Below are positions 2,838 to 25,927 of a DNA stretch of 27,230 nt, piece by piece (within the stretch, counting starts at the first letter, position 1; each line of letters starts with the position of its first letter). The notes beneath the pieces are model-generated. The model did no database searches. It was not told where the DNA came from and saw only the letters and a program-made list of their open reading frames with translations. The stretch comes from Candidatus Eiseniibacteriota bacterium (GTDB lineage Bacteria; ARS69): assembly GCA_052390515.1 (NCBI GenBank), contig JBQTGV010000138.1, forward strand, positions 1-27,230, given 5' to 3'. The position numbers and the translations under genes were made by a program.

Positions 2838-2890
2838 CGCACGCCTCCTTGCGGCAGGAACTCGAATGTAGCGGCCCGGCCGGGCCGACT

Positions 2891-3805: not shown

Positions 3806-3830
3806 CGCGCCGGCCAGCGGGACGAAATCG

Positions 3831-4823: not shown

Positions 4824-4832
4824 GGATCGACC

Positions 4833-5852: not shown

Positions 5853-5859
5853 GGGCGGC

Positions 5860-7524: not shown

Positions 7525-9314
7525 CGCGGCGCACTCTGCTCTGGATCGCGGGGAATCCGGAGGGGTCGTCGGCAGAGCTGGTCGCGCGCCTCGCGAGCGA
7601 GTCGGGAATCATCTGCCGGGACCCGGGCGAGGTGGCGCGCCGCTCGGCCGAGGCGGATGCGGCCGTCGTGGTGCTCGCCTCCGGCGACGGCACCCGAGAT
7701 TCCCTGCTCGCCGGATGTGGGCGTCTCGTCGGGAGCCTCGGCGAGGACCGCGTGTGTTTCGTGCGGGCCCGGGACGGGGGCGGCGGGTTTCCGGACGGCC
7801 TGTTCGATGCGCTCGTGGTAGAGCTCGACGACGGTGCGGATGTCGACCGATGTCTGGAGCGCATTCGCTCGTTCGTCCACGGCTCTTCCGGCGCGTCCCT
7901 CGGCTTCGGCGGAACGCTGGAGCGCGCGCGCCGCTCGGCGGAACGGGCTCTCTCCGAGCTGCGCGGCGCGGGGTGCGACGGCCGCGCGGAGCATCCCGTC
8001 GTCCTCGATTCGGCCGGCGCGTGCGTGTCGGCCTACGCCGATGCTCTGGATCTCGTGCAGCGACGCTTCTGGACGACCACCGTCCTCACGTCGGGTTTCT
8101 GGACGCACCGCGTCGACGCCGTCCTCGACGCGAACCGGCGCATGATGCGAAGGCTCGCCGGCGGTGCCGGCGCCCGACGCCTCTTCCTGCTGGACCGCCC
8201 GGCGGAGCAGGTCGTGGCCGCCTACCGCGAACGGCGCATCCTCCTCGATCGGACGGGCAACGCGGGAGACGTCGCGGCGTTCGACGAGGAGACCGACACG
8301 CTGATCCGTAACGTCGCCGCGCTCGTGGCGGAGGGCTGCGAGCTCCGGGTGGCCTTCGATGGAACGGCGGCGTCGGCCCGGCTCCCAGCGGAGCTGGGCT
8401 GGAGGCAGGACGACTCGGAGATCGCCGTATACGACGACTTCCGCGTGGACGTCTTCGAGGGAGGGCGCGCCGGCGCGATCCGCCGCGTCCAGGGATTCAC
8501 GCCGGCCATGCGCCGCTTCCCGGAGCACCTGCAGGCCGCCGAGCGGTTCTTCCTCGAACTGTGGAACGGCGCCGCAGTCATGGACGACTTCCTCCGCGAT
8601 CTGAGCGCGGCGCTCGAATCCGCGAAAGGCCGGATCCACTACAGGGCGAACTGGCTCGCGCGCTACGAGTTCGCTCTCGACGAGGGCGACGCGGCGTTGA
8701 AGCAGGCGGAGGCCGAGCGGCTGGAGGAAGCGCTGCGCGCGCACGGGTTCTGGGGCGGCGTCGGCTCGGTGCTCGACGTCGGCACGTGCACGGCACGGTA
8801 CCCCTTGCTCCTGCGTCCCGCGGTCCGGGACGACGGCACGATCGTCGGCGTGGACGACGATCCGGACTGCGTGCAGTTCGCGCGGGAGAACGTGGCCCGC
8901 GCCGCGCCCGGGGACTCCCGGATCGTCCTGGTGCGTGCCGACTTCGCCGCGCGGGACCTGACGCTTCCGGGCGCGCCGTTCGATCTGGTCACGTGCATGA
9001 TGAGCACCGTCTCGCACTTCGGGCGCGGCCGGCGGGCCGATTTCGGCGATCCGTTGCAGGCCGTGATGAGGCGCTTCGCCGGCTTGCTCTCCCCGGACGG
9101 CCTGCTCGTGCTGAGCAGCTGGTCCCGGACCGCGCTCGAGAGCGGCCGGCTCCTCGCGATCTACGACGAGCCGGACTGCAAGAGGCTCGTGGAGTGGACG
9201 CCGCAGGCCGACGAGCTGGACGCGCGGCTTCTCGCCGCCGGCCTGCGCGCAGTCGAGCGGTCCGTGCCCGATCCACGGCTCGATCTGCTCGTGTGCAGGA
9301 AGGTCGCGGCATGA
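7521..9314 (+). CDS. Multidomain protein: degenerate TIR-like N-terminus, PLD-like middle domain, C-terminal class I SAM methyltransferase (597 aa)
   Basis: GTG at 7521 overlaps the halogenase stop (GTGA); stop overlaps the NRPS1 ATG. MTase motifs 'VLDVGTCTARY', 'IVGVDDD', 'RADF', 'FDLVTCM', 'LLSPDGLLVL'. N-terminal and middle domain calls are weaker. Confidence 0.7.
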   Translation: MTRRTLLWIAGNPEGSSAELVARLASESGIICRDPGEVARRSAEADAAVVVLASGDGTRDSLLAGCGRLVGSLGEDRVCFVRARDGGGGFPDGLFDALVVELDDGADVDRCLERIRSFVHGSSGASLGFGGTLERARRSAERALSELRGAGCDGRAEHPVVLDSAGACVSAYADALDLVQRRFWTTTVLTSGFWTHRVDAVLDANRRMMRRLAGGAGARRLFLLDRPAEQVVAAYRERRILLDRTGNAGDVAAFDEETDTLIRNVAALVAEGCELRVAFDGTAASARLPAELGWRQDDSEIAVYDDFRVDVFEGGRAGAIRRVQGFTPAMRRFPEHLQAAERFFLELWNGAAVMDDFLRDLSAALESAKGRIHYRANWLARYEFALDEGDAALKQAEAERLEEALRAHGFWGGVGSVLDVGTCTARYPLLLRPAVRDDGTIVGVDDDPDCVQFARENVARAAPGDSRIVLVRADFAARDLTLPGAPFDLVTCMMSTVSHFGRGRRADFGDPLQAVMRRFAGLLSPDGLLVLSSWSRTALESGRLLAIYDEPDCKRLVEWTPQADELDARLLAAGLRAVERSVPDPRLDLLVCRKVAA

Positions 9315-12300
9315 ACTCCCCCGCGCACGAGCTTCGCTCCGAGAGCGACCTTCGCGATCTGCAGCTCCTGCTGTGGCTCGGGCAAACCCTCGCGCCCGAA
9401 GCGCCGGGGTACAGCCTGCCGTTCGCGTTCGAGATCCGCGGCGAGCTGGACCCCGTGCACTTCGAGAACGCGGTGCGTGCCTTCGTCGAGCGCTGCGACG
9501 CCGCCCGCATGATCTTCGAGGAGGTCGACGGTAGACCGCGGCAGCGCGTCCGCGCGCTCGATCTTCACCTCGAACGCCAGGACTTCTCCGGCGACCGGAA
9601 CGCGGACGCACGGCTCGAGGCGTGGCTCGCGGAGCGCGTGTCGCGCGCGTTCCGTCTCGACGAGCGGCTCTTCGACACGGCGCTGGTGAGGATGGCTCCG
9701 GATCGGTTCGTCTGGTACTGGAACCAGCATCATCTCACCGCGGACGGATGGTCCTACGGGCTGATGCTGCGGCGGGTGGGGGAGTACTACGGCCTCTCGC
9801 GGGAGGGTCGGCTCGCCGGTGCCGCGGAGCTGCCGTCTTTCGCGGCGTACCTGGCGAAGGAGAGGGCCGGCCGCCCGCTCCGGGCGAAGAGCGGCACAGC
9901 CGGCGCGGAGCCTCCGAATGCCCCGCTCGAATGGTACGGGCGCACCGACGCCGTGAAGTCCCTCGCCGAGCGGCGAGTCACCCGCGCGCTGGGCGCCCGG
10001 CGGACGCGGGGGCTGCGCAGGCTGGCGGCGGATCCCGCGTTCCGCTCGCTCGGATCGGAGCTGACCGTGCTCGAGCTTCTCGCCGCGGCGACCACGGCGT
10101 ACGTGCACCGCGTCACCGGCGCGCGCCGGATCGCGCTCGGCATCCCCTTCGCCCACCGCTCCACGCCCGAGGAGCGCGAGGTCTGCGGGCTCCTGCAGGA
10201 GATGATCCCCCTCGATCTCGTGCTGGCCGAGGGCGAGACCCTGCGCTCGCTCGCCGCGAAGGTGGACGCGGAGATCTGGAGGTCGCTGCGCCGGGTCCGT
10301 GCCGGCGCTGCCCCGGCCGGCGGCACGAGCCGCTACGAGATCCTGCTCAACTATCCCGCGGTGACCTTCGCCGAGCTCGACGGGCTGCCGGTGCACGCGC
10401 GCTGGATCCATCCGGGGTTCGGCGACGGTCAGCGCAGCCTCTTCGTGCAGATCCATGACTTCGACGGCAGGGACGAGCTCGTCCTGCACTTCGACGCGAA
10501 CGCGGGGATCTTCGCCGGGGAGCTGGCCGAGAGGGCCGCCGGCCATCTCGCGGCCGCGATCGATCGCCTCATCGAGGACCCGGACCAGCTCGTCGAACGG
10601 CTGGATCTGCTCGGCGACGCCGAGCGGGAGCTCGTTGTGCGGGGGTTCAATCGCACGGGGGAGGAGTACCCGCCCGGCGAGGTCGCCGACCTGTTCGAGC
10701 AGCAGGCCGCGAAGACGCCGGAGCGCGAGGCGCTGGTCTTCGGCGACGGCGCGTGGACCTACGCGGAGCTGGACCGCGCGGCGAGCCGGCTCGCACGGTT
10801 CCTCCGCGAGCGTGGCGCCGCGCCCGGCGTGTGCGTGGCCAGCTGCGTCGAGCGCTCCGTGGAGTCCGTCGTCGGCCTGCTCGCCGTGTGGAAGTGCGGC
10901 GCCGCCCACGTGCCCATCGATCCGACCTATCCGCGGGAGCGCATCGCGTTCCTGCTCGAGGACAGTGCGTCCCGGATCCTGCTCACGCAAGAGCGCTGGC
11001 TCGGCCTTCTCCCCGCTTCGCGTCCCGAAACGGTGGTGCTCGACCGGCTCGACCTGCAGGGGCTTCCCGACGATCCGGCAGAGCGCAGCCTCGTGCTCTC
11101 CGACCTGGCCTACGTCATCTACACTTCCGGCTCGACCGGCAAGCCCAAGGGCGTGGCGATGAGCTGCCGCGCGCTGGTCAACCTCGTGCGGTGGCAGGTC
11201 CGGCAACCGACGCCGCTCGCCGCCCCGCGCACGCTGCAATTCACGCCGCTGACCTTCGACGTGTCCATGCAGGAGATGCTCTCGACGTGGGCGGCGGGAG
11301 GGACGCTCGTCCTGATCCCGGAGGAGACGCGGCGGGATCCGGAAGCGACGCTTCGATGGATCGAAGAGCAGCGCGTCGAGCGGCTCTTCATCATCTTCAC
11401 GCCGTTCCAGCGGATCGCCGAGGCTGCGGACCGCACCGGGATCGTTCCGCGCCGGCTCCGCGAGGTGATCACCGCCGGCGAGCAGCTGCAGATCACTCCG
11501 GCGGTGCGCAGGTTCTTCGAGCGGCTTCCGGGTTGCTCGCTCACCAACCAGTACGGACCGTCGGAGACGCACATCGTGACCGCCGGGCACGTCGAGGGCG
11601 CGCCCTCCGAATGGCCTCTGCTCCCGTCGATCGGCCGCCCCATCGCCAACACGGAAGCGTACGTGCTCGACGACGCGCTCCGTCCCGTGCCCGTGGGAGT
11701 CACGGGCGAGCTCTGGATCGGCGGCGCACAGGTCGCGGAGGGGTACGTCCGGCGGCCGGAGCTGACCGCGGAGCGCTTCGTGCCGGATCTGTTCCGCGGG
11801 GAGGCGGGAGCGCGGCTCTACAAGACGGGCGATCTCGCGCGCTGGAACGAGGACGGATCCATCGCCTTCCTCGGCCGGCGCGATCACCAGATCAAGCTCC
11901 GGGGATACCGCATCGAGCTCGGGGAGATCGAGTCGGTGCTGGCCGCGCACCCCGACGTCGAGCAGGCAGCGGCGCTCGCCAGGGCGAACGGCGGCGAGCC
12001 CCGTCTTCTGGCCTGGGTCGTTCCGCGCGGCGAGGCCGACGCCAAGCTACCGCTGCGCCTGCGCCGCTGGCTCGAGGAGCGGCTTCCCGAACCGATGGTG
12101 CCGTCGGCGTTCGTCGTGCTGGACGCGCTGCCGGTGACCCCGAACGGGAAGGTGGATCGGCTCGCCCTGCCGGAGCCGGACGGAGCCCGGCCCGAGCTCG
12201 AGTCCGCGTACGTCGCGCCGGCGACGTCCCTGGAGCGGACCATCGCCGGAATTTGGCGAAGCGTGCTCGGCGTCGACCGCGTCGGGCTTCGCGACAACTT

Positions 12301-12541
12301 CTTCGATCTCGGCGGCCACTCGCTGCTCCTGGTGGAAGTGCACGACGCCCTTCGCCCATTCGCGCCGCGACAGGTCTCCGTGGTGGACCTGTTCCACCAC
12401 CCGACGGTCGAGGCGCTGGCGGCCTTCCTCGACGGCGCGCGTCCGGACTCCGCTTTGGAGAGCGTGGCGGAGCGTGCCGGCCGCCAGCGGGAGGCGTTCA
12501 CGCGTGCGCGGCAGGACAGGGAGGGGCGGCGCCATGAGTGA
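9311..12541 (+). CDS. NRPS module C(starter-like)-A-PCP (1076 aa), A domain Pro/imino-acid-like
   Basis: ATG 9311 (ATGA overlap). C 'HHLTADG'; A 'YVIYTSGSTGKPKG', 'NQYGPSET', 'YKTGDL', 'PNGKVDR'; PCP 'NFFDLGGHSLL'. Confidence 0.95.
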   Translation: MNSPAHELRSESDLRDLQLLLWLGQTLAPEAPGYSLPFAFEIRGELDPVHFENAVRAFVERCDAARMIFEEVDGRPRQRVRALDLHLERQDFSGDRNADARLEAWLAERVSRAFRLDERLFDTALVRMAPDRFVWYWNQHHLTADGWSYGLMLRRVGEYYGLSREGRLAGAAELPSFAAYLAKERAGRPLRAKSGTAGAEPPNAPLEWYGRTDAVKSLAERRVTRALGARRTRGLRRLAADPAFRSLGSELTVLELLAAATTAYVHRVTGARRIALGIPFAHRSTPEEREVCGLLQEMIPLDLVLAEGETLRSLAAKVDAEIWRSLRRVRAGAAPAGGTSRYEILLNYPAVTFAELDGLPVHARWIHPGFGDGQRSLFVQIHDFDGRDELVLHFDANAGIFAGELAERAAGHLAAAIDRLIEDPDQLVERLDLLGDAERELVVRGFNRTGEEYPPGEVADLFEQQAAKTPEREALVFGDGAWTYAELDRAASRLARFLRERGAAPGVCVASCVERSVESVVGLLAVWKCGAAHVPIDPTYPRERIAFLLEDSASRILLTQERWLGLLPASRPETVVLDRLDLQGLPDDPAERSLVLSDLAYVIYTSGSTGKPKGVAMSCRALVNLVRWQVRQPTPLAAPRTLQFTPLTFDVSMQEMLSTWAAGGTLVLIPEETRRDPEATLRWIEEQRVERLFIIFTPFQRIAEAADRTGIVPRRLREVITAGEQLQITPAVRRFFERLPGCSLTNQYGPSETHIVTAGHVEGAPSEWPLLPSIGRPIANTEAYVLDDALRPVPVGVTGELWIGGAQVAEGYVRRPELTAERFVPDLFRGEAGARLYKTGDLARWNEDGSIAFLGRRDHQIKLRGYRIELGEIESVLAAHPDVEQAAALARANGGEPRLLAWVVPRGEADAKLPLRLRRWLEERLPEPMVPSAFVVLDALPVTPNGKVDRLALPEPDGARPELESAYVAPATSLERTIAGIWRSVLGVDRVGLRDNFFDLGGHSLLLVEVHDALRPFAPRQVSVVDLFHHPTVEALAAFLDGARPDSALESVAERAGRQREAFTRARQDREGRRHE

Positions 12542-15500
12542 GGCGGGTACTCCCAGGATCGCGGTCGTGGGCATGGCCGGCCGCTTCCCGGGAGCTCCGG
12601 GGATCGACGAGCTCTGGATCCTGCTCCGCGACGGCAGGGAGCCGTCCGTCGAGCTGAGCGACGCCGAGCTCCTGGCGGCTGGAGTCGATCCCGCGCTGCT
12701 CGCCGATCCCGCCTACGTGAAGCGCGCGGCCCTCCTCGACGGGATCGACCGCTTCGACGCGCGATTCTTCGGCTACACGCCCCGCGAGGCGGCCACGATG
12801 GACCCGCAGCACCGCCTGTTTCTGGAAGCGGCGTGGCACGCGCTCGAGGATGCCGGCCACGGCGCGGAGGAGGACGCGGGCCCGGTCGCGGTCTTCGCCG
12901 GCGAGAGCCTCGACACCTACGCGCGGAACAACCTCTACCCGGACCGCGACTTCGTCGCCTCGATGGAGGATCTGCAGGCGCTCATGAGCGTCGACGGCGC
13001 CTTCCTCGCGACGCGCGTGGCCTACCACCGCAACTTGACCGGGCCGGCCGTGGTCGTGCAGAGCACCTGCTCGACGTCGCTGCTGGCCATCTGTCAGGCG
13101 TGCCAGAGCCTGCTGCAGTACGGTAGCGACCTCGCGGTGGCGGGCGGCGTCTCGGTGCGCGTCCCGGAGCGGCGCGGTTACCTGTACCAGCCCGGGGGAA
13201 TCCTCTCGCCGGACGGACGCTGCCGCCCGTTCGACGCGCGCGCCGCGGGCACGTACTTCAGCAACGGAGTCGGCGCCGTCGTGCTGCGGCGGCTGGAGGA
13301 CGCGCTCGCGGACGGCGATTCGATCCACGCGGTGATCCGCGGGTGGGCGGTGAACAACGACGGCGCGTCGAAGGTCGGCTACACGGCGCCGAGCGTCGAA
13401 GGTCAGGCCGCGGTGATCGCGATGGCGCAGGAGCTGGCCGGCGTGGATCCGGCCACGATCGGCTGCGTCGAGGCGCACGGCACCGCCACCGCACTTGGCG
13501 ATCCCATCGAGGTGGCCGCGCTGACGCGCGCGTTTCGCGGGCGAAGCAACCGGCGCGGCACCTGCGCGCTGGGGTCGGTCAAGAGCAACTTCGGACATCT
13601 CGACGCCGCGGCGGGCGTGGCCGGCTTCCTCAAGACGGTGCTCTCCTTGAAGCACGGCCGGATCCCGCCGAGCCTGCACTTCGAGCGGCCCAACCCGAAC
13701 ATCGACTTCGGCGCGGGCCCCTTCTTCGTCAACGGGAGGCTCGCGGCGTGGCCGGACCTCGGAGCGCCGCGCCGCGCGGGTGTGAGCTCCTTCGGCATCG
13801 GCGGGACGAACGCGCACGTCGTCCTCGAGGAGGCGCCGCCGGCCGCCGCGGTCGATCCGCCCTCGCGGCCGTTCGAGCTGCTGGTCGTCTCCGCGAAAAC
13901 CGAGGCGGCGCTCGCCGCGCAAGCCGAGAGCCTGGCCGGCCGTCTCGCCGCGGCACCGGACGTCGCGCTGGCCGACGTGGCGCACACGCTGCAGACCGGA
14001 CGGCGGGGATTCGCCCGGCGTCGTGCGCACGTCTGTCGCGACGCGCAGGACTCGGAGCGTGCGCTTCGTGCGGCCCGCCGCGGCGCGCCGGCGGCGGAGG
14101 CGACGGATCGTCCGGACGTGGCCTTCCTCTTCCCCGGGCAGGGCGCGCAGTACGCGGGGATGGGGCAAGGGCTCCGAGACGCGGAGCCCGAGTTCCGGAG
14201 GCACGTCGACGAGTGCGCGGCGGTTCTCGAGCCGCTGCTCGGTCTCGACATCCGCGAGGCGATGCTCGACGGCGGTCGCCTCACCGACACGGAGCTCGCC
14301 CAGCCGGCGCTCTTCACCGTCGAGTACGCGCTCGCACGAACGTGGATGAAGTGGGGAGTGCACCCGGCGGCGATGATCGGGCACAGCGTGGGCGAATACG
14401 TCGCGGCGTGCCTCTCCGGCGTGATGTCGCCGAGCGACGCTCTCTCGCTCATCGCTGCCCGCGGGAAGCTGATGCAGCGGCTGCCGCGCGGCGCCATGCT
14501 CGCGGTGCCGCTCTCGCCGGAGGCGGCGTCGAGTCGGCTGGACGGCGGGCTCGCGCTGGCCGCGAGCAACGCGCCGGAGCTGTCCGTCGTGTCCGGGCCG
14601 ATCCCCGCGGTCGAAGCGCTCGAGGTGCGCCTGCGCGAGGAGGGCATCGCCGGGCGCCGGCTGCACACGTCGCACGCGTTCCACTCGGCGATGATGGACC
14701 CGATCCTCGAGGACTTCGCCCGGGAAGTGCGCCGCGCGAAGCTGGACGCTCCGCGCATCCCCTACGTGTCCAACGTGACCGGACGGTGGGTCCGGCCGGA
14801 GGAGGCGACGGATCCGGCGTACTGGGCCACGCATCTGCGGCAGACGGTTCGCTTCTCCGAAGGAGTGGCCGAGCTGCTACACCGTCCGGTTCATCTCCTG
14901 CTGGAAGTCGGGCCGGGTCGCGCGCTCGGCGCACTCGCCGGACATCATCGGAGCGCGGCAGTCCCAGCCGTCGCGGCGGTCCCGTCCCTGCGTGACGCAC
15001 GCGACCCTCGTTCCGACGTCGAGTGCCTGCTGGATGCTGCGGGACGGCTCTGGGAAGCGGGCGTCGAGATCGACTGGCGCGCCTTTCGCGGCGGCGAGCG
15101 GCGCCGGCGCATTCCGCTCCCGGGGTATCCCTTCGAGCGCGAGCGGCACTGGGTGGAGCCGCGTCGCGGGACGGGGCGAAGCTCGACGCCGCGAAGCGAC
15201 GACGCGGCGGGTCGCTTCTGGATTCCGTCGTGGAGGCGGTCGTCGGTGCCCCCCGCGCCCGCGCGCGTCGCGGAACGCTGGCTGGTGATCGGCGGCGACG
15301 ACGAGCTCACCCGGCGATTGACCGGCGCTCTCGCCGGCCGAGGCTGCGAGGTGATCGCCGGAGAGGGGCGCGCACCGAACGTGCTCTGGACCCGGAGCGC
15401 GCCGGGTGAGGGCGTGGCGGCCGGGAGCGAGGACGAGGAGCTCGAGCTCGCGTTCTTCGGTCCCGTGCTGCTCGCGCGCGCGCTGGCCGGATCGGGAGAG

Positions 15501-17708
15501 CACGTCCGCCTCGTCGTCGTGACGCACGGAGCGCAGGACGTGTGGGGGACGGAGGAGCTCGTGCCGGAGCGGGCCGCCGCGGCCGCCGCGTGTCGCGTGA
15601 TCTCCCGGGAGATGCCGGACATCGCTGCCCGATGCATCGACGTCGAGAACGGTCGGCTCGATTCGCCGGAGCGCATCGACGCGCTGGTCGCCGAGGCACT
15701 CTCCGGCGAGACGGATCCGCTCGTCGCTCACCGGGGTGGCTACCGCTGGTTGCCCGCGCTCGAACCGGTGCGCATCGAGGCGGGAGAGGCGGCCGGGTCG
15801 GCTCCTCCGCTCGGCGCGTGGATCGTGACCGGCGGCCTGGGCGGCCTCGGCCTGGAGATCGCCGCGCACCTGGCGCGCAAGCAGCGGGCCAAGCTCGTGC
15901 TCGTGTCTCGCCGGGGTCCCGACGCCGAGCGACTTCGCCGCGTGGCCGAAATCGAATCGCTCGGCGGCGAGGTCGAGATCGTGCGCGGGGACGTGTCGCG
16001 CGCGGACGACATTGCGGCGACACTCGCGCGCGCGCGTGCTCGCTTCGGCAAGGTCCACGGCGTGATCCATGCGGCAGGCGTCGCCGGCGCGCACGCGCTC
16101 GAGGAGACGACGCGCACGACGGCCGCCCCCGTGCTTCTGCCGAAGATCGCCGGCGCGAAGCTCCTGGTGGCGGCCTGCGAGCGCGAGGGCTGCGAGCGCC
16201 TCGTGCTCTTCTCTTCGCTCGCGTCCCGCTTCGGCGGCGTGGGGCAGGGCGACTACGCCGCCGCGAACGCCGTCCTCGAGGCCATCGGAGCGGCGGCGGC
16301 GCGCCGATCGTCGTGCGCGGTGACGGTCGTCGGCTGGGACGCCTGGTCAGGCGTCGGCATGGGGACGGTCGCGGGGCCGTTCTCGTCGGAGGAGGGGCAT
16401 GCCGAGCGGCTCCGCGGCGCGCTCACGCCGGCGGAGGGCGTCGAGGCCTTCGCGCGGATCCTCCGCGCCGGGCACGGCCACGTGCTCGTGTCCACCCGCG
16501 ATCTCACCGCGGGATTCGAGGGCACGATGCCGCCGGACGAGTCTCGGCGCGCGTCCGGTCCAGCGCCGACCGCGCCGGATCCCGGCGTGGAACTCGCCGG
16601 CCGGGAACGGGTCGTCGGCGAAGTGTGGCGCGAGCTGCTCGGCGTCGACCGCATCGGTCCGCAGGACGACTTCTTCGCGCTCGGCGGTCACTCCCTCCTC
16701 GCCACGCAGATGCTCAATCGTCTGCGAAGGAGGCTGCCCGGCGTGGACGTCAAGCTCGAGGACGTGTTCCGCGCGCCGACCGTGGCGGGACTCGCGGCTC
16801 GGATCGAGGCGGCGGAGGCGGCGGCAGGGTCCGCGGCGAAGTCCGCACCTTCGCCGAGCCGGGCGCCCGCCGGCGAGGCAGCGGGCATCCGGGGCGTGGT
16901 CCTCGTGCTGTGCACGCCGCGCTCCGGCTCGACGCTCTTCCGGCTCATGCTGTCGGGCCACCCACAGCTCTTCTGTCCGCCGGAGCTCTGGCTTCTCGGC
17001 CACGCGACGCTGTCGGAGTGGAGCCGGGATCCGTTCTCCGTCGTGTACCGGGACGGCTTGGTTCGCGCCTTCGCCGGTCTGGACGGCGGACGGGAGCCGG
17101 CGCCGCAGGAGCTGGTCGAAGAGCTCGTCCGCCGCGGGATGCCGGTGGCCGACGTGTACCGGATGCTCCGCGAGCGATCCGGCGGACGCATGCTGATCGA
17201 CAAGACGCCCGGGTACGTCCTCGATCGGGCCGCTCTCGCACAGGCCGAGCGGGTCTTCCACGAGGCGCGCTACGTGCATCTCGTCAGGCATCCGCTCGCG
17301 TCCATCGAGTCGTTCGTGCGCTCCCGCTTCGACCGGTTCCTCGAGGAGCGCGGCGATCCGCGGGAGATCGCGGAGCGCACCTGGGCCGACGGCAACGGGA
17401 ACGCGCTCGAGTTCCGCGCGGCGCTGCCTCCAGGGCGGCACCTGCTGGTCCGCTACGAAGCGCTCGTTCGCACGCCGGTGGCCGTGATGCAGGAAGTCTG
17501 CGCGTTCCTCGACGTGCCCTTCGACGAGGACGTGCTCCGGCCCTATGAGCGCGGGCGCATGTTCGAAGGTCCCGGTGATCCCGGCCTGCGCGCGCACGCC
17601 GGAATCGACCCCTCGCGCGCGGACGCATGGAAGACGGCGTCCGCGTCGGCCGTCGGGACGCGGACGCGGTCGCTCGCCGCCGCTCTCGGCTACGAGCTGC
17701 CCGCGTGA
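12534..17708 (+). CDS. Type I PKS module KS-AT-KR-ACP-sulfotransferase (1724 aa)
   Basis: KS 'VQSTCSTSL/EAHGTAT/NFGHLDAAAG' (hybrid NRPS-accepting type); AT 'GHSVGE' and 'HAFH' (malonyl); KR 'TGGLGGLG...GQGDYAAAN'; carrier 'FFALGGHSLL'; ST 'CTPRSGSTL', 'PPEL', 'DKTP', 'LVRHPLASIESF', 'RYEAL'. Confidence 0.95.
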   Translation: MSEAGTPRIAVVGMAGRFPGAPGIDELWILLRDGREPSVELSDAELLAAGVDPALLADPAYVKRAALLDGIDRFDARFFGYTPREAATMDPQHRLFLEAAWHALEDAGHGAEEDAGPVAVFAGESLDTYARNNLYPDRDFVASMEDLQALMSVDGAFLATRVAYHRNLTGPAVVVQSTCSTSLLAICQACQSLLQYGSDLAVAGGVSVRVPERRGYLYQPGGILSPDGRCRPFDARAAGTYFSNGVGAVVLRRLEDALADGDSIHAVIRGWAVNNDGASKVGYTAPSVEGQAAVIAMAQELAGVDPATIGCVEAHGTATALGDPIEVAALTRAFRGRSNRRGTCALGSVKSNFGHLDAAAGVAGFLKTVLSLKHGRIPPSLHFERPNPNIDFGAGPFFVNGRLAAWPDLGAPRRAGVSSFGIGGTNAHVVLEEAPPAAAVDPPSRPFELLVVSAKTEAALAAQAESLAGRLAAAPDVALADVAHTLQTGRRGFARRRAHVCRDAQDSERALRAARRGAPAAEATDRPDVAFLFPGQGAQYAGMGQGLRDAEPEFRRHVDECAAVLEPLLGLDIREAMLDGGRLTDTELAQPALFTVEYALARTWMKWGVHPAAMIGHSVGEYVAACLSGVMSPSDALSLIAARGKLMQRLPRGAMLAVPLSPEAASSRLDGGLALAASNAPELSVVSGPIPAVEALEVRLREEGIAGRRLHTSHAFHSAMMDPILEDFAREVRRAKLDAPRIPYVSNVTGRWVRPEEATDPAYWATHLRQTVRFSEGVAELLHRPVHLLLEVGPGRALGALAGHHRSAAVPAVAAVPSLRDARDPRSDVECLLDAAGRLWEAGVEIDWRAFRGGERRRRIPLPGYPFERERHWVEPRRGTGRSSTPRSDDAAGRFWIPSWRRSSVPPAPARVAERWLVIGGDDELTRRLTGALAGRGCEVIAGEGRAPNVLWTRSAPGEGVAAGSEDEELELAFFGPVLLARALAGSGEHVRLVVVTHGAQDVWGTEELVPERAAAAAACRVISREMPDIAARCIDVENGRLDSPERIDALVAEALSGETDPLVAHRGGYRWLPALEPVRIEAGEAAGSAPPLGAWIVTGGLGGLGLEIAAHLARKQRAKLVLVSRRGPDAERLRRVAEIESLGGEVEIVRGDVSRADDIAATLARARARFGKVHGVIHAAGVAGAHALEETTRTTAAPVLLPKIAGAKLLVAACEREGCERLVLFSSLASRFGGVGQGDYAAANAVLEAIGAAAARRSSCAVTVVGWDAWSGVGMGTVAGPFSSEEGHAERLRGALTPAEGVEAFARILRAGHGHVLVSTRDLTAGFEGTMPPDESRRASGPAPTAPDPGVELAGRERVVGEVWRELLGVDRIGPQDDFFALGGHSLLATQMLNRLRRRLPGVDVKLEDVFRAPTVAGLAARIEAAEAAAGSAAKSAPSPSRAPAGEAAGIRGVVLVLCTPRSGSTLFRLMLSGHPQLFCPPELWLLGHATLSEWSRDPFSVVYRDGLVRAFAGLDGGREPAPQELVEELVRRGMPVADVYRMLRERSGGRMLIDKTPGYVLDRAALAQAERVFHEARYVHLVRHPLASIESFVRSRFDRFLEERGDPREIAERTWADGNGNALEFRAALPPGRHLLVRYEALVRTPVAVMQEVCAFLDVPFDEDVLRPYERGRMFEGPGDPGLRAHAGIDPSRADAWKTASASAVGTRTRSLAAALGYELPA

Positions 17709-20700
17709 CGGCTCGCCGAGCGCCGCTCTCGCTCGCCCAGCAGCGGCTATGGCTGCTCGAGCAGCTCGAGCCGGAAAGCCGCGCGTACCACATGCGAGCG
17801 GCGTTCCGCGTGCACGGCGAGATCGACGTCCACCGCCTCGAGCGAAGCGTCGCCGAGATCGTGAGACGCCACGAGCCGTTGCGTACGACGTTCGCGTCGG
17901 AAGGCGGCGAGCCGGTACAGGTGATCCACGAGTCGGTCGAGCATCGCATTCTGCTGGACGACCTGACCGGCGTGAACGCGGCGGACCAGGAGACGGAGCT
18001 GCAGCTCCGGATGACCCGCGAGGTGCGCCGCCCGTTCGACCTCGGGGAAGGCCCGCTCCTGCGCGTCGTGCTGTACCGGTGTGACGCGCGGAAGCACGTG
18101 TTGCTGATCGTCGTGCATCATCTCGTCGCCGACGGATGGTCGATGGGCCTCTTCGCCCGGGAGCTGGTCGACCTGAACGCGGCGCTCTCCGAGGGGCGGC
18201 CGTCCCCGTTGCGAGCGCTGCCGTTGACGTACTCGGAGCACGCCGCACGCCAGCGGGGCGAGATCGAGAGTGGCGCTCTCGACGAGCAGCTCTCCTGGTG
18301 GACGAGGCAGCTGGCCGGCGCGCCCGCTTCCACCGATCTTCCCACCGACCGGCCGCGCCCTCCGTCGCAGGGGCACCGCGCGGGGGTAGTGACCGGGAGG
18401 ATCCCGGCGGCGGAAGTCGCGGCGCTCGACCGGCTGGCGCGCGCCGAGGGCGTGACGCCTTTCATGGTGCTGCTCACCGCGGTCGCGCTGGTGGTGCACC
18501 GTCACACTGCTGCCACCGACGTCGTCCTCGGAACGCCCATCGCCAACCGGAACTGGGCGGACGTCGAGGAGCTCATCGGGTTCTTCGTGAACACGCTGGC
18601 GCTGCGCGTCGACCTCGCCCGGGATCCCACCTTCCGCGAGTTGCTGGCCCGCGTGCGCGCCACGGCGATCGACGCCTTCGATCGTCAGGATCTGCCCTTC
18701 GAGCGTCTGGTCGAGGAGCTGCGCCCGCCGCGCGATCCGAGCCGCACGCCGCTCTTCCAGGTGATGCTGCTCGTCCAGAACGTGCCGCTGCCGCGGCTCG
18801 AGGGAGGCGGGCTGCGCCTCGAGTACCTGGAGGTCGAGTGCGGGACGGCGCGCTTCGACCTGTCGCTATTCGCGCGGCGGGAAGCGGACGAGCTCGCGCT
18901 GCTGGCCGACTACGACGCGGACCTGTTCGACGAGGCGACGATCGAGCGGCTGCTCGCCCGGTTCCGGCGTGTGCTGGACCGCGCCTGCGCCGAACCGGAT
19001 CAGCGCATCGGCGACCTCGATCTCCTCGGCGCAGACGAACGGCGCCTGTTGGACGAGCTGAACCGGACGGAGGCGGAGTATCCCGAGGTCACCCTGGCGG
19101 ATCTCTTCGAGGCGCAGGCGGCGCGCACGCCGGAGGCGCCGGCGCTCGTGGACGGGGACGAGCGTCTGACCTTTGCCGAGCTGAACGCACGGGCGAATCG
19201 CCTGGCGCTCCGGCTGCGGAGGGAAGGTGTCGCCGGCGGAGACGTGGTCGCGGTGCGGCGCGAGCGATCGGCCGGCGCAGTGATCGCCCTGCTCGCCGCC
19301 ATGAAGGCGGGCGCCGCGTGGCTTCCGGTCGATCCTTCCTTCCCGGCGGAGCGCGTCGAGTTCATGCTGCGGGACGCGAAGCCGCGGGTAGTGCTCGGAG
19401 ACGACGAGGAGGACTCCATCGGCGAGCCGGCGACGAACCCCCCGCGAACGACGACGGCGGACGACGTGGCCTGGGTGCTGTACACCTCCGGCTCGACGGG
19501 CACGCCGAAGGGTGTGCTCGGACTGCACCGGGGTGCGGTGAACCGCATCGTCTGGGGCTGGCGGGAGCACCCCTTTCGACCGGGCGAGGTCGCCTGCCAC
19601 AAGACGCCGCTCGGGTTCGTGGACTCGGTGCAGGAGGTCCTCGGCCCGCTGCTCGCGGGCGTGCCGGTGGTGGTCGCGCGGGACGACACGGCCCGCGATC
19701 CGCGCGCGCTCGTGGAGGCGATGGCGCGGCACTCGGTGAGCCGGCTCGTCGTCGTGCCGTCGCTGCTGCGCGCGCTGCTCGACCTGCCGGGGGATCTGCG
19801 GGCGAAGCTGCCGGCACTGGCCCTCGTCATCAGCAGCGGGGAGCGCCTGACCGCGGACCTCATCGACGGGTTCCAGCGCAGGCTTCCGGGCACGCGGCTG
19901 GTCAACCTCTACGGATCCTCCGAGGTGTCCGCGGACGTGACCGCATGGGACGCACCGGCCCGCGGCGGCACCGGCGACGCGCTGCTCGGGAGGCCCATCG
20001 CCAACGCGCGCATCCACGTGCTGGACGAGCGCGGGCGTTCCGCGCCGATCGGCGTGCCCGGCGAGATCGTGGTCGGGGGCGCAGGTCTCGCGCGGGGGTA
20101 CCTCGGCCGTCCCGAGCTCACCGCGGAGCGTTTCGTCGCCGACCCCTTCGCCGGGCGTCCCGGAGAGCGGCTCTACCGCACCGGGGATCGTGGCCGGATC
20201 CGCGCCGACGGGAACCTCGAGTATCTTGGCCGGAGCGACCACCAGCTCAAGATCCGCGGTGTGCGCATCGAGCCGGGCGAGACCGAGGCGGCGCTCCTCG
20301 AGCACCCTGCCGTGCGAGAGGTCGTCGTCGGCGCACGGGAGCGTAGGTCCGGGGACCCGGATCTCGTAGCTTGGTTCGTGACCGACCGCGATCCGGCGCC
20401 GGTGTCCGAGGAGCTGCGCGCGTTCCTCGCGGCGAAGCTGCCGGCGTTCCTGGTGCCGAGCCTCTTCGTCCGAGTCGCCGATGTGCCGCGCACCCCGAGC
20501 GGCAAGGCGGACCGCGCGAAGCTCACGCTGCCGGAGGCAGCCGCGGGACCCGCAGCAGGCGACGTGCCGCGGACGCCCTTCGAGCAGCTCCTCGCGGAGA
20601 TCTGGCGGGAGGAGATCGGCATCGCCGCGGTGCGCACCGCGGACAACTTCTACGACGTCGGTGGACACTCGCTGCTCGCGGTCCGCGTAGTCGAGAAGCT

Positions 20701-20878
20701 GCGCGAGCGCAGCGGCATCCGGCTCCCACCGCGCGATCTCCTGCTGCAGACCCTCGGCCAGGTCGCGCGGCGCTGCGAGCAACGGGAGCGGGAGAGGTCG
20801 GCGCGCGCACCGACGCTCGGCCGAAAGCTCCTCGGTGCGGCGCGACGTCTCGCCGGGCGCGGGGGCGGCGATGCCTGA
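17705..20878 (+). CDS. NRPS module C-A-PCP (1057 aa), A domain beta-alanine-like, no TE
   Basis: GTG 17705 overlaps the PKS stop. C 'LSLAQQRLW...HHLVADG...IGFFVNTL'; A 'YTSGSTGTPKG', 'GFVDSVQE', 'NLYGSSEVSAD', 'YRTGD'; PCP 'NFYDVGGHSLL', followed only by a short basic tail. Confidence 0.95.
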   Translation: MTARRAPLSLAQQRLWLLEQLEPESRAYHMRAAFRVHGEIDVHRLERSVAEIVRRHEPLRTTFASEGGEPVQVIHESVEHRILLDDLTGVNAADQETELQLRMTREVRRPFDLGEGPLLRVVLYRCDARKHVLLIVVHHLVADGWSMGLFARELVDLNAALSEGRPSPLRALPLTYSEHAARQRGEIESGALDEQLSWWTRQLAGAPASTDLPTDRPRPPSQGHRAGVVTGRIPAAEVAALDRLARAEGVTPFMVLLTAVALVVHRHTAATDVVLGTPIANRNWADVEELIGFFVNTLALRVDLARDPTFRELLARVRATAIDAFDRQDLPFERLVEELRPPRDPSRTPLFQVMLLVQNVPLPRLEGGGLRLEYLEVECGTARFDLSLFARREADELALLADYDADLFDEATIERLLARFRRVLDRACAEPDQRIGDLDLLGADERRLLDELNRTEAEYPEVTLADLFEAQAARTPEAPALVDGDERLTFAELNARANRLALRLRREGVAGGDVVAVRRERSAGAVIALLAAMKAGAAWLPVDPSFPAERVEFMLRDAKPRVVLGDDEEDSIGEPATNPPRTTTADDVAWVLYTSGSTGTPKGVLGLHRGAVNRIVWGWREHPFRPGEVACHKTPLGFVDSVQEVLGPLLAGVPVVVARDDTARDPRALVEAMARHSVSRLVVVPSLLRALLDLPGDLRAKLPALALVISSGERLTADLIDGFQRRLPGTRLVNLYGSSEVSADVTAWDAPARGGTGDALLGRPIANARIHVLDERGRSAPIGVPGEIVVGGAGLARGYLGRPELTAERFVADPFAGRPGERLYRTGDRGRIRADGNLEYLGRSDHQLKIRGVRIEPGETEAALLEHPAVREVVVGARERRSGDPDLVAWFVTDRDPAPVSEELRAFLAAKLPAFLVPSLFVRVADVPRTPSGKADRAKLTLPEAAAGPAAGDVPRTPFEQLLAEIWREEIGIAAVRTADNFYDVGGHSLLAVRVVEKLRERSGIRLPPRDLLLQTLGQVARRCEQRERERSARAPTLGRKLLGAARRLAGRGGGDA

Positions 20879-21623
20879 CGGCGGACTCGACGTCTTCCGC
20901 TTCGGGTCGTCGGCGTCGCCGAAGCTGGGCTGCTTCCACCGGCCCGAGGTCGGCGCGGCGTCGCGGCGGACTGCCGTCGTTCTGTGTCCGCCGCTGGGGC
21001 ACGAGACCATCCGCTCGCACCGGGCATACCGGCGGCTCGCGGGCGAGCTCGCTGCGGCAGGGCACGCGGTCCTGCGCTTCGATCTCACCGGCACGGGCGA
21101 CTCGGCCGGAGGAGAAGAGCTCTGGGGCCTGGAGACGTGGACCGCCGACGTGGTCGACGCGATGGACGAGGTCCTGCGGCGCGGCTCCGGCGCGTCGTCG
21201 CTCTGCCTGGTCGGCGGCCGGCTCGGTGCGGCGCTCGCCGTGCGCGCGGCGGATCGGCGGCGCGACGTGGCGGCACTCGTCCTCTGGGACTCTCTGTTCT
21301 CGGGAAGAGATGCTCTCGCGGAGCTCGCCGCGGAGCACCGCCGGGTGGTGAGCACGGCGCACGTGAGCCGGAAGGCTCGAGCGGGGGCGAGCGGCGACAT
21401 GGAGTTTCTCGGATTCGAGCTGTCCGCCTCGTTTCGCCGGGAGCTCGAGGCGATGGAGGTCGCCGTGCCGGCCGGAGATTCGCCCGCGGTGCTGCAGGTG
21501 GCGACGACATCGTTCCCGGAGAGCGAATCGCCCTGGATGTGGATGGAGGACGTGGCTCGCGCGGTGCTTCCGGTGAGGGTGGTGCGGGAGATCACTTCGT
21601 GGGTCCGGGCACGGTGCCCGTGA
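20871..21623 (+). CDS. Alpha/beta-hydrolase-fold protein lacking a nucleophile (exosortase-A-associated hydrolase 2-like, 250 aa)
   Basis: 'VVLCPPLGHE', 'LRFDLTGTGDS', elbow 'LVGGRLGA' (Arg at the nucleophile site), 'LVLWD', 'EFLGFEL'; ATG 20871 overlaps the NRPS2 end. Confidence 0.8.
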   Translation: MPDGGLDVFRFGSSASPKLGCFHRPEVGAASRRTAVVLCPPLGHETIRSHRAYRRLAGELAAAGHAVLRFDLTGTGDSAGGEELWGLETWTADVVDAMDEVLRRGSGASSLCLVGGRLGAALAVRAADRRRDVAALVLWDSLFSGRDALAELAAEHRRVVSTAHVSRKARAGASGDMEFLGFELSASFRRELEAMEVAVPAGDSPAVLQVATTSFPESESPWMWMEDVARAVLPVRVVREITSWVRARCP

Positions 21624-23129: not shown

Positions 23130-24482
23130 TCAGTCCAGGAACCACGCCGTGGTGAGCGGCGACGTCCGGAAGAAGTCGTAGAGCATCGTCCCGATCTTCG
23201 TCCGCGCCGGTACGGCGGGATGCGCGCAGTCCGGATTCAGCTCCGACGGAGACCAGGTGAGGCCCTGGGAGTTCGCGTTGCCGCCGTCGGCCCACATGTA
23301 CGGACCCCAGGCGAGCCACGGCGCGACGTCGAGTCCGAGATCCCCCGCGATCGGATCGATGCTGCCGGTGGCCAGCTGCTCGATCTGCGCCTCGATCAGC
23401 CATTTGACCGCGAAGCCGGTCTCGTAGGCGAAGGGCTCGTCGCTCGGGCCGCCCTGCGAGCAGCTCCAGATGCGAGTGGCCAGGTACACCTGCTTCACGT
23501 TCGGATACGTGCTCTTGAGCGCGCGGGCTACGTCGCCCCACTTGCCGAGCAGGTCGAATGCGTCGGCGTTCACGTTGGGCAGCCCGACCGTGGGATCCAG
23601 ATTCGCCATCTTGCACCAGATCACCTCGACGTCCGCCTCGGTCCGGCCGGCCTGCTGCAGCCAGCCCTGAACGAAGCCGTATGCCGGATCGGAAGGCGAG
23701 TCCCAGTCCGTCGCCACGCGTCCGCCGATGCCGCCGTTCACCAGCACGAGGTTGTCGTTGAGGATCGCGTCGCCCCACGCCTGGCCGATGAACGAGTAGT
23801 TCGCGCAACCCTGCGGTCCGATCTGGCCGCCGAAGGACACGTCGCGCTGATTGATGGGATCGCAGAACTCCATCTTGCAGTTGGAGAACCCGATCGAGAG
23901 CAGGACGAACGGCTGGCTCGTGTCCACCTGCGGCTGCCGCGCGACGTGCGCCGCCGGGCAGTCGTTGCTCCCGGGGTAGAGCAGGCCGGGGAAGCTCCTG
24001 TAGGTGTACCCCTGCATGTCGATCAACGCGATGGACGCGGTGGTGTCGGTGAGCACCGGCTGCGCGGACACGGTGAGGCTGGGGAGAGTGGACGTGACCG
24101 CAGCCCCGTCGACGGTCGCGCTGATCGTCGTGGGCGTGCCTTCCGTCGCCCCGGTGAAGCGCGCCGTGTAGGTGCCGTCGCCGTGATCCGTCGTGGCGCC
24201 GATCGCCCCCTGGCTGCTTCCACCGGACGCGGCGAAGGTCACGGCGCGTCCTCCGCTCGTGATCGCGGACCCCGCATCGTCCCGCGCGTGCAGCGTGAGC
24301 GTGGAGAAGGCACCCGGCGCGATCGACTCGGGAAAGACGGTCACGACGGATCGGGAGAGCGAGACCGTGCCCGGGCCGGGGACGTTGCCGGCGGGGTTGT
24401 CGTCACCGCAGCCGGAGGCGAAGAGCATGGCCAGGGCGACGGCGGTCCGCCGCAGCGTACGGCGCGTCAGCGCGATGCTCAT
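23130..24482 (-). CDS. Lipoprotein with invasin/Big-type Ig domain and SGNH-like hydrolase domain (450 aa)
   Basis: ATG 24482 with GGGAG RBS; signal plus lipobox 'MLFASGC'; Ig motif 'TTDHGDGTYTARFTG'; 'SIGFSN', 'NGGIGG' and 'DCAHP' resemble SGNH blocks I, II and V. Confidence 0.7.
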   Translation of the reverse strand: MSIALTRRTLRRTAVALAMLFASGCGDDNPAGNVPGPGTVSLSRSVVTVFPESIAPGAFSTLTLHARDDAGSAITSGGRAVTFAASGGSSQGAIGATTDHGDGTYTARFTGATEGTPTTISATVDGAAVTSTLPSLTVSAQPVLTDTTASIALIDMQGYTYRSFPGLLYPGSNDCPAAHVARQPQVDTSQPFVLLSIGFSNCKMEFCDPINQRDVSFGGQIGPQGCANYSFIGQAWGDAILNDNLVLVNGGIGGRVATDWDSPSDPAYGFVQGWLQQAGRTEADVEVIWCKMANLDPTVGLPNVNADAFDLLGKWGDVARALKSTYPNVKQVYLATRIWSCSQGGPSDEPFAYETGFAVKWLIEAQIEQLATGSIDPIAGDLGLDVAPWLAWGPYMWADGGNANSQGLTWSPSELNPDCAHPAVPARTKIGTMLYDFFRTSPLTTAWFLD

Positions 24483-24631
24483 CGGATCTCCCACGGGGGT
24501 CGTGCGCGGACATTCTGGCACCCGAGCGGGCGCGAGTCCACTTCCCTCGTTTCGGCGCGCTCGAGGGGCAGCCTTGAGCGGAGACCGCGCCGATCTGGCT
24601 GGAACTTGCGCCCTCTCGCTCCCGCTTGCGC

Positions 24632-25444
24632 CTATCCGTAGAGGCCGGCGGCCTTGTGCGCGGAGGTGAGGATACCCTTGATGAGGGCCGAGCTGAAGCC
24701 CTGGTGCTCCATCTCGTTCAGTCCGGCGATGGTGCAACCACGAGGCGTGGTCACGCGGTCGATCTCGGACTCGGGGTGGCGGTCCTCCTCCACGAGGAGC
24801 GCGGCGGCGCCCTTGGCCGTGTGCGCCGCGAGCAGGAGCGCCTCCTCGGGATGGAAGCCGATCTCGATCCCGCCCTGGGAAGCGGCCCGGATGGAACGGA
24901 GGAAGAACGCGATGCCGCACGCGCAGAGCGCCGTGGCCGGGATCATGAGCGCTTCCCGAATCACCAGCGTGCGCCCCACGCCGTCGAATAGCGCCGCGGC
25001 CTCGGCGAGCGCGTCGGCATCTTCGCTCTCCGCGGTGAGGCAAGTCATCGACTCGCGCACGGCGACCGCGGTGTTGGGCATGGCGCGCACGATCGGCAGC
25101 TTGATGCGGAGCAGATCCCGCAGCTGCTCCAGAGACACGCCGGAGACGGTGGAGATGACGCGATGCCAGCGCGGCTCGAGCGCGTCCCGGATGCCGTCGA
25201 CGAGAGACTGGAGCTGCTGGGGCTGCACTGCGAGCACGAGGATGTGCGCCCCGCGGACCGCGGCGAGGTTGTCCGTTCCGGTGCCGAATCCATCGGCGGC
25301 GAGCGGTGCGAGCTTCTCGGCGTCGCGGCGCGTCACATGGATCCGGGCAGCGTCGACCGTCCCGCTCCCCGCCCAGCCGCGCGCCAGGGCCTGCCCCAGG
25401 TTGCCGGCGCCAAGGATGGCGATGGATGCCGTGCCGCGAGTCAT
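24632..25444 (-). CDS. proC: Pyrroline-5-carboxylate reductase (270 aa)
   Basis: 'IAILGAGNLG', 'LAVQP', 'VRAMPNT', 'VTTPRGCTIAGLNEMEHQG'. Confidence 0.95.
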   Translation of the reverse strand: MTRGTASIAILGAGNLGQALARGWAGSGTVDAARIHVTRRDAEKLAPLAADGFGTGTDNLAAVRGAHILVLAVQPQQLQSLVDGIRDALEPRWHRVISTVSGVSLEQLRDLLRIKLPIVRAMPNTAVAVRESMTCLTAESEDADALAEAAALFDGVGRTLVIREALMIPATALCACGIAFFLRSIRAASQGGIEIGFHPEEALLLAAHTAKGAAALLVEEDRHPESEIDRVTTPRGCTIAGLNEMEHQGFSSALIKGILTSAHKAAGLYG

Positions 25445-25547
25445 GGTGGGGAATCTAGACCGCGACCTCGTTCGGTGGCAAGGCGCGATCGGCCGCCGCA
25501 AGGGGATCGGGCGGATCGCCGAGGTGCGGGCGCTGAGCAGCGGCGGA

Positions 25548-25901: not shown

Positions 25902-25927
25902 CGTGCTCTCTCTCCCTCGCGTCCACC

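Follow-up and report, generated by a model that had tools for sequence, protein, structure and literature searches.

A polyketide synthase module ending in a CurM-family sulfotransferase and followed by a peptide module in Candidatus Eiseniibacteriota

The PKS and its terminal sulfotransferase

We analyzed a 27,230-nt stretch of DNA (hereafter, the window) that constitutes the entire contig JBQTGV010000138.1 (C138) of a Candidatus Eiseniibacteriota genome (assembly GCA_052390515.1; 4.27 Mb, 95% complete, ~71% G+C). It encodes a polyketide synthase (PKS) with the domain order ketosynthase (KS), acyltransferase (AT), ketoreductase (KR), acyl carrier protein (ACP), and sulfotransferase (ST). The protein stops at the ST, lacks a thioesterase (TE), and is followed directly by a nonribosomal peptide synthetase (NRPS) gene, NRPS2, with condensation (C), adenylation (A), and peptidyl carrier protein (PCP) domains. 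A first-pass annotation had described this terminus, at 16885–17708, as an ST of the type found in CurM and olefin synthases (OLS), lying behind a KR-ACP pair and ahead of a C-A-PCP gene whose start overlaps the PKS stop; the coordinates are correct, and the Pfam domain order on both sides of the junction and the overlap itself (GTGA, 17705–17708) bear the description out. Genes were called from an open reading frame (ORF) listing, Pfam and NCBIfam scans, and inspection of start and stop codons. The features of the junction are as follows.

12534–17708 (+): PKS, KS-AT-KR-ACP-ST; its ATG at 12534 overlaps the stop of the upstream gene, NRPS1
~12555–13685 (+): KS domain
~14124–14918 (+): AT domain
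~15813–16349 (+): KR domain
~16614–16805 (+): ACP domain
16890–17705 (+): ST domain
17705–20878 (+): NRPS2, C-A-PCP; its GTG start overlaps the PKS stop (GTGA)
~17717–19051 (+): C domain of NRPS2, with an intact HHLVADG motif
~19106–20506 (+): A domain of NRPS2
~20588–20773 (+): PCP domain of NRPS2

Pfam assigns the five PKS domains to the KS, AT, KR, PP-binding, and Sulfotransfer_3 families, and the database copy of the protein (P0004) is 1,724 aa long, consistent with a start at 12534. In the translation of 12474–17708, Sulfotransfer_3 (PF13469) matches aa 1476–1685 with an E value of 9.8e-30, and the motifs previously quoted for the ST (PRSGSTLFRLMLSGHPQLFCPPEL, DKTPGY, LVRHPLASIESFVR, DPGLRAHAGIDPSRADAWK, and the terminal LGYELPA*) are all present. 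The 5′-phosphosulfate-binding (5′-PSB) loop for 3′-phosphoadenosine 5′-phosphosulfate (PAPS) reads PRSGST, the 3′-phosphate-binding (3′-PB) motif reads RHPxxxxxS, and the catalytic Glu and the Lys lie in PPELW and DKTP, respectively. When the translation of 16800–17705 is compared with proteins of resolved structure, residues 12–301 align with the CurM ST (4gbm, E 2.6e-60) and residues 33–301 with the OLS ST (4gox, E 2.5e-57), the next PDB match being a tyrosylprotein sulfotransferase at 6e-10; judged from these alignments, homology to the CurM and OLS structures is far above chance.

The rest of the module is of the KS-AT-KR extension type, with no Pfam match to a dehydratase (DH) or FkbH domain. 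Its AT carries a HAFH motif and, read by eye, appears to be malonyl-specific, and its KR retains the glycine-rich loop and Tyr. The PKS stop codon (TGA, 17706–17708) overlaps the GTG (17705–17707) in the NRPS2 frame, and the Condensation match begins at residue 31 of the next ORF, that is, at nt 17717, 12 nt on from the GTG. Because the C domain occupies the sequence right behind the ST stop, there is no space for a TE (at least 250 aa) in any frame, which confirms that the module has none. The possibility, raised in advance, that a frameshift at about 17700 conceals one is thereby excluded.

Family, phylogeny, and spread of the ST

A search with the ST region against a collection of 5.8 billion proteins returned 48 non-self proteins with 49 ST domains (P0009 has two). 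The protein ends 0 to 68 residues past the ST in 27 of these, continues into a TE-sized tail of 306 to 397 aa in 12, and continues into a further NRPS part of 749 to 2,249 aa in the remaining 10. A separate locus scan, limited to one genome per species, yielded 582 relatives, from which the best 80 loci were kept and sorted by what follows the ST. Here, a CurM-type TE follows in 64 loci, mostly from cyanobacteria (in L076, the TE is separated by a stop); six have a tail of 321 to 334 aa that is unmatched by three TE queries (“TE2”; the relative P0024 carries PF00975); three, all from Chloroflexota (L061, L081, and L088), have the ST fused to C-A; and seven have a stop directly after the ST (L010, L016, L025, L066 and its duplicate L070, L083, and L089).

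The ST family has 996 members at an E value of ≤1e-30 in a representative library of 1.84 billion proteins. Pooled, the two protein searches give 201 ST domains in 192 proteins, a sample that is biased toward the query and in which some “ends” may be truncated metagenome genes: 83 domains are terminal (no more than 75 aa follow), 41 lie mid-line, 75 precede a TE-sized tail, and 2 are in between. The layout of an ST without a TE is thus not rare and recurs in metagenomes. A metagenome scan with the ST query produced 598 pattern matches and no relatives, and matches were present in 9 of 401 Planctomycetota genomes; the one new close match among the latter, G156, proved to be an ST-TE.

In a quick maximum-likelihood tree of 129 ST domains, 32 terminal STs, the window ST among them, separate from the 97 others with an SH-like approximate likelihood ratio (SH-aLRT) support of 98. 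We then relied on a more careful tree of 81 rows, made up of all non-TE rows (except L070, dropped as a duplicate of L066), 12 protein-derived TE rows, and 16 of the 63 locus-derived TE rows. The window ST falls in a clade of 20 STs, every one of them protein-terminal, with an ultrafast bootstrap (UFBoot) support of 98 and an SH-aLRT of 93, apart from the ST-TE rows. The label “CurM/OLS-type” that the first-pass annotation had given to this ST, and for which it had proposed a phylogeny as a check, therefore stands as far as membership in a homologous family goes but needs qualifying: the window ST belongs to a separate, protein-terminal clade that lacks a signature His and has a shortened loop.

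Residue and loop signature of terminal STs

We compared residues across 129 ST domains, 50 of which come from the window PKS and its protein-search relatives and 79 from the genome loci. None of these 129 domains, the window ST included, departs from the following residues: Arg and Thr in PRSGST, Glu in PPEL, Lys in DKxP, Arg and His in RHP, and the Ser behind RHP. In the numbering of chain 4gbm_A, the Glu, the signature His, and the Lys are residues 63, 65, and 136, which we take to be Glu60, His62, and Lys133 of CurM, the offset of three fitting a tag. McCarthy et al. (2012) are said to have assigned catalytic roles to CurM Glu60 and Lys133.

Two features set the terminal STs apart, with the proviso that the counts describe related sequences rather than independent events and that the terminal group was defined from the tree. 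First, the position of CurM His62, two residues after the catalytic Glu, is occupied by Trp in the window ST. It is His in 74 of 75 ST-TE domains and all 6 ST-TE2 domains (80 of 81 STs before a TE), as opposed to a single one of the 32 terminal STs, the others having N (9), W (6), F (6), G (3), Y (2), T (2), D (2), or A (1). Second, the loop between PY and GDP measures 9 to 11 aa in all 32 terminal STs (9 aa in the window), whereas it measures 16 to 19 aa in all 81 TE-followed STs, such that terminal STs are ~7 residues shorter here. What is new, as far as these comparisons go, is that the window ST is atypical of CurM and OLS and sits in a supported terminal clade with residue and loop features of its own. 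The absence of His62 together with the short loop could serve in genome mining for sorting STs by context.

Replacement of His62 might instead mark an ST that is catalytically dead and persists as a structural or docking element at the junction of the PKS and NRPS2. No classical docking domains are visible there, since the PKS ends right at its ST (LGYELPA*) and NRPS2 has only ~4 residues ahead of its C domain. We nevertheless regard a dead ST as highly improbable: every PAPS-binding and catalytic residue is retained, both in the window ST and throughout the 32 terminal STs, and members of the clade have W, F, N, Y, T, A, G, or D at the His62 position, the free variation expected of a residue that they do not need. 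From its homology and conserved residues, the window ST very probably sulfates the beta-hydroxyl of an ACP-bound chain.

Operon and genomic context

The PKS lies in a single plus-strand operon of 11 genes that spans ~19.6 kb, from an ACP gene (3545) to a phosphopantetheinyl transferase gene (23129), and whose start and stop codons, upon inspection, are all overlapping or near-abutting. Seven junctions, from that between the halogenase and methyltransferase genes through that between Hyd2 and the phosphopantetheinyl transferase, overlap outright (by GTGA, ATGA, or a few more bases), suggesting that the operon is translationally coupled. Besides the PKS and NRPS2, its genes are as follows.

3545–3805 (+): free-standing ACP of 86 aa (PF00550; a weak NCBIfam match to ACP_for_OlsHI, E 4.6e-13, is below cut-off)
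3831–4823 and 4833–5852 (+): two genes resembling ketoacyl-ACP synthase III (KASIII), from Pfam/NCBIfam scans
5860–7524 (+): halogenase-like gene dependent on flavin adenine dinucleotide (Trp_halogenase PF04820, E 4.7e-19; a weak CmlS match is far below cut-off)
7521–9314 (+): 597-aa protein with a C-terminal S-adenosylmethionine (SAM) methyltransferase domain
9311–12541 (+): NRPS1, C-A-PCP, with an HHLTADG motif, upstream of the PKS
20871–21623 (+): Hyd1, an alpha/beta-fold protein distantly resembling TIGR03101
21620–22477 (+): Hyd2, an alpha/beta-fold enzyme distantly resembling TIGR03100
22467–23129 (+): phosphopantetheinyl transferase of the Sfp/PptT type, the last gene of the operon

The first ~400 aa of the 597-aa methyltransferase protein are without a Pfam or NCBIfam match. 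Together, the genes that open the operon (3545–9314) may supply a halogenated, methylated short acyl starter to the divergent C domain of NRPS1.

Beyond the operon, two plus-strand ORFs (23220–24641 and 24654–25991) have no family match in the Pfam and NCBIfam scans, while minus-strand ORFs over the same region (23220–25991), read by eye, resemble a lipoprotein and a pyrroline-5-carboxylate reductase; because the plausible genes beyond it are on the opposite strand, we place the end of the cluster at 23129. Farther out, on the minus strand, 25928–27229 encodes a protein that combines DUF11 repeats with a FlgD Ig-like domain and matches Por_Secre_tail (type IX secretion sorting) weakly, below cut-off, and 133–3222 encodes a 1,029-aa protein with a Peptidase_S74 intramolecular chaperone domain. 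Both flanking genes seem to be outside the cluster.

A six-frame search of the genome detected type I KS or C domains at an E value of <1e-10 on this contig only; no second type I PKS/NRPS locus was found in this 95%-complete genome. The genome encodes an adenosine 5′-phosphosulfate (APS) kinase (E 2.4e-56) and has nine further matches to PF13469, which renders a supply of PAPS plausible. The ST itself, searched at an E value of ≤1e-20, was found in none of 60 other genomes around the host lineage, 11 of them from the same family, so the distribution of the cluster is sporadic. The host family has only those 11 other genomes in the collection, and its next kin share nothing below the rank of domain, indicating that the host lineage is small and isolated.

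Loci of related PKSs

The four closest PKSs, all from JGI metagenomes, have STs that are 92, 84, 82, and 66% identical to that of the window, share its Pfam make-up, and stop 0 to 4 residues past the ST. The four best homologues of Hyd2 (90, 88, 81, and 70% identical) reside on contigs identical in length to those of the four PKS relatives (36945, 16966, 17869, and 39280), and, on this basis, the PKS with its ST and Hyd2 appear to travel together in four of four relatives.

Other loci of the ST clade show what can follow a terminal ST. The proposed architecture, KS-AT-KR-ACP-ST(stop) and then a peptide module, does recur: in L010 (Rhodothermaceae), a TauD-like gene precedes such a PKS, and a C-A-PCP-TE protein (its TE matching PF00975) begins 116 nt past the stop, a layout from which it follows that the chain passes from the terminal-ST module to the peptide module. 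In L025 (Phycisphaerales), the ST stop is followed by a gene resembling asparagine synthase and then by three NRPS modules, and in L066 the ST stop and an NRPS are separated by a radical-SAM gene. L016 (Planctomycetota) has the ST stop, an asparagine synthase-like gene, and then opposite-strand homologues of Hyd2 and Hyd1, along with a free PF13469 sulfotransferase, a PhyH gene, and polysaccharide genes; it has no NRPS within the 10 kb examined. The setting of L016 looks like one for a sulfated lipid or exopolysaccharide rather than a peptide.

Two further observations concern these loci. A gene with a PF00733 asparagine synthase domain stands directly behind the terminal-ST PKS in both L016 (921–2222, +) and L025 (10527–12143, +), two distinct Planctomycetota loci from one ST clade, and is absent from the window. 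In L016, the region 3975–10900 beside the terminal-ST PKS contains the free PF13469 sulfotransferase and the PhyH dioxygenase together with a polysaccharide flippase, a deacetylase, and a GT4 glycosyltransferase.

The free hydrolases Hyd1 and Hyd2

Hyd1 and Hyd2 are paralogues (33% identity over 125 aa) with distant, sub-cut-off matches to TIGR03101 (“hydrolase 2, exosortase A system-associated”; Hyd1, E 5.7e-25) and TIGR03100 (“hydrolase 1, exosortase A system-associated”; Hyd2, E 1.2e-26). The nucleophile elbow of Hyd1 reads GGRLG, with Arg in place of Ser, and its homologue in L016 likewise has Arg. Hyd2 has a Cys nucleophile (GICSG), and among 121 members of its family the Cys is retained in 119 and the His in all 121.

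Two alpha/beta-fold genes placed right after NRPS2 raise the prospect that CurM-type off-loading is merely split, with a free hydrolase acting in trans as the decarboxylating TE and releasing a terminal alkene from the PKS, bypassing NRPS2, an outcome that had been named at the outset as one that would undo the proposal. The L016 locus could be read in the same way, since its terminal-ST PKS adjoins Hyd homologues (40% and 38 to 48% identical, in local matches) with no NRPS in 10 kb. The following evidence runs the other way. A profile built from 12 ST-linked TE tails gives only 29 bits for Hyd1, over an alignment of ~100 residues around the elbow, and 27 bits for Hyd2; single-sequence phmmer searches return nothing at E values of ≤10; and a PDB search with Hyd1 retrieves 12 hydrolases, the CurM TE not being among the matches listed. 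Hyd1 has Arg at the nucleophile position, the Hyd2 family has Cys, and both resemble exosortase-associated hydrolases. No CurM-type TE was found elsewhere in the genome, the top score of 61 bits falling on unrelated ORFs at a generic level. Moreover, the PKS is translationally coupled to an intact NRPS2, and His62, kept in nearly all TE-followed STs, is Trp in the window. Hyd1 and Hyd2 were accordingly rejected as CurM-type TEs on their profile scores and their want of a Ser nucleophile, and we consider split off-loading to an alkene very unlikely.

For a Cys-His enzyme with a dead paralogue at its side, a joint role in acyl transfer or off-loading seems a better fit than that of the decarboxylating TE of CurM, and Hyd2 is likely the off-loading enzyme. 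A pair of the Hyd1/Hyd2 type also occurs in L016 (2225–4026, minus strand); such pairs may off-load or acyl-transfer carrier-bound chains.

The NRPS partners

In a tree that covers 22 C domains (11 directly behind an ST in one protein, 4 encoded downstream of a terminal ST, and 7 others), those following STs form no joint cluster but group with siblings from their own protein or locus; HHxxxDG is kept in all 22. C domains specialized for elimination or cyclization after an ST were rejected on both counts. The C domain of NRPS1 diverges strongly, its terminal branch in this tree measuring 2.96, and might act as a starter C domain, taking its chain from an acyl-ACP.

In the A domain of NRPS2, the HMMER alignment places Val at the position of Asp235, with an Asp one residue later (FVDS versus FDGS/FDIS of LgrA), a pattern known from domains activating beta-amino acids. 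Its specificity code, read by eye, is approximately V-D-Q-V-I-S-L-A-D-K, which we presume to be near the codes for beta-alanine and treat as a lead only. The code of the NRPS1 A domain, also read by eye, is approximately D-V-Q-x-I-A-Q-I-V-K and is faintly proline-like, again a lead only.

Proposed pathway and fate of the sulfate

From this layout we infer a pathway, including its module order, its substrates, and the sulfation step itself. NRPS1 would provide an N-acylated aminoacyl chain, to which the PKS would add malonate, the KR giving a statine-like gamma-amino-beta-hydroxy acyl-S-ACP. While the chain sits on the ACP, the ST would sulfate its beta-hydroxyl; the C domain of NRPS2 would then couple the beta-sulfooxyacyl chain to an amino acid that is probably of the beta type, for example beta-alanine; and Hyd2, through its Cys and with the nucleophile-less Hyd1, would remove the product from the PCP. 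The sulfate ester would most likely stay in place, the product being a small sulfated acyl-peptide.

With the carboxyl group bound as an amide by NRPS2, the CurM route of hydrolysis, decarboxylation, and sulfate loss would be closed, and the sulfate would be either carried into the product or lost by non-decarboxylative elimination or displacement. Three points argue for its being carried along: the C domain is ordinary, both His62 and the long loop are missing, and the Oci, Dys, and Aer systems provide a precedent for the order carrier-ST-C. The composite reading, in which an active, PAPS-dependent ST passes a sulfated chain to NRPS2 and the sulfate is retained in the product, is one that we would put at about an even chance of being correct.

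Several considerations weigh against retention. The precedents for it concern glycerate in loading modules and not the product of a KR, and to our knowledge the only in-line STs linked to a product are those of cyanobacterial glycerate loading modules. CurM and OLS, the closest relatives with solved structures, use the sulfate as a leaving group in their ST-TE chemistry. They are also, as far as we know, the only members of the ST family to have been studied biochemically. Loss of His62 and of the long loop does not prove a different chemical outcome. The tree groups, too, consist of related sequences and not of independent events, and terminal STs of the myxobacterial type form a second clade of 11 (100/99) that the careful tree does not join to the window clade, such that a single origin of all terminal STs is not secure. 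Lastly, the PKS module has no DH, and sulfating the hydroxyl and then eliminating it would make sense as a stand-in for dehydration.

This last point leads to a cryptic sulfate, which would act as a non-decarboxylative leaving group: elimination would yield an alpha,beta-unsaturated, vinylogous amino acid, or an internal nucleophile would displace the sulfate in a ring closure, before or after condensation by NRPS2. The ST does act in cis on the ACP, the usual site of beta-processing domains. No partner for elimination or cyclization is evident, however, the C domain being ordinary and the operon offering no other candidate; the window clade lacks both the His62 and the long loop, which are present almost without exception where the sulfate is known or expected to leave; and in-line STs with retained sulfate do exist (PMC2533009, PMC6520454, and PMC10143770). 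We rate a cryptic sulfate as possible, if rather doubtful. With similarly limited conviction, the terminal-ST clade might be viewed as a new kind of beta-processing domain in which the ST replaces a DH or prepares a ring closure in mid-line; if so, the module would make an electrophilic vinylogous amino acid, and the loss of His62 and the short loop would mark the changed use. Retention appears most likely, although sequence alone does not settle what becomes of the sulfate.

Comparison with known systems

The CurM ST of curacin A biosynthesis (4GBM) and the OLS ST of Synechococcus PCC 7002 (4GOX) belong to the same family as the window ST, with ~270 to 290 residues aligned. Like both of these, the window ST follows a KR-ACP pair, and it shares their PAPS motifs as well as their Glu and Lys; unlike them, it has no TE in the same protein and a C-A-PCP gene in its place, Trp at the His62 position, a PY..GDP loop of 9 aa, and a position in a separate, terminal clade of the tree. 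In the ST-TE pairs of CurM and OLS, the sulfate is a leaving group in off-loading chemistry that releases an alkene, and the window ST fails three features of such “activating” ACP-ST-TE arrangements, namely, the TE, His62, and tree placement.

An ST of the CurM family is also present outside cyanobacteria in P0045, a type I PKS of Haliangium ochraceum in which 307 aa follow the ST, as opposed to the window PKS, which ends there. We take P0045 to be the haliamide PKS-NRPS, with its ST-TE terminus; haliamide reportedly has a terminal alkene.

The domain order of the window, read across its two genes, matches that of three Chloroflexota loci (L061, L081, and L088) and of P0034, all KS-AT-KR-ACP-ST-C-A-PCP. 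These differ from the window in being single polypeptides whose STs have both His62 and the long loop and fall on the ST-TE side of the tree, by which measure the fused ST-C layout probably had an independent origin.

In-line STs whose sulfate remains in the product are described for the oci cyanopeptolin cluster of Planktothrix (OciA, cyanopeptolin-1138/oscillapeptin E; PMC2533009), for DysB of dysinosin (PMC6520454), and for AerB of suomilide and varlaxin, where the first module of varlaxin has the order OMT-FkbH-PCP-ST and leads into the next module (PMC10143770). The sulfate in these products is on glyceric acid, and the roles of the STs were deduced from matching clusters to products and not from assays. 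As in the Oci, Dys, and Aer systems, the window ST stands behind a carrier domain and ahead of the next C domain; unlike them, with their glycerate and FkbH/GA initiation modules, it would serve a KR-made beta-hydroxyl in an extension module.

Full-text literature searches, from which subscription journals were largely absent, found no characterized PKS extension module that ends in ACP-ST without a TE, and this design apparently has gone unstudied. The window represents a third setting for an ST, next to the off-loading ST-TE pairs and the in-line STs of glycerate modules: one in which the ST stands at the end of a polyketide extension module that hands its chain on to a peptide module. Its compact operon offers a practical test case for distinguishing beta-sulfated acyl-peptides from a general, DH-independent use of sulfate as a leaving group.

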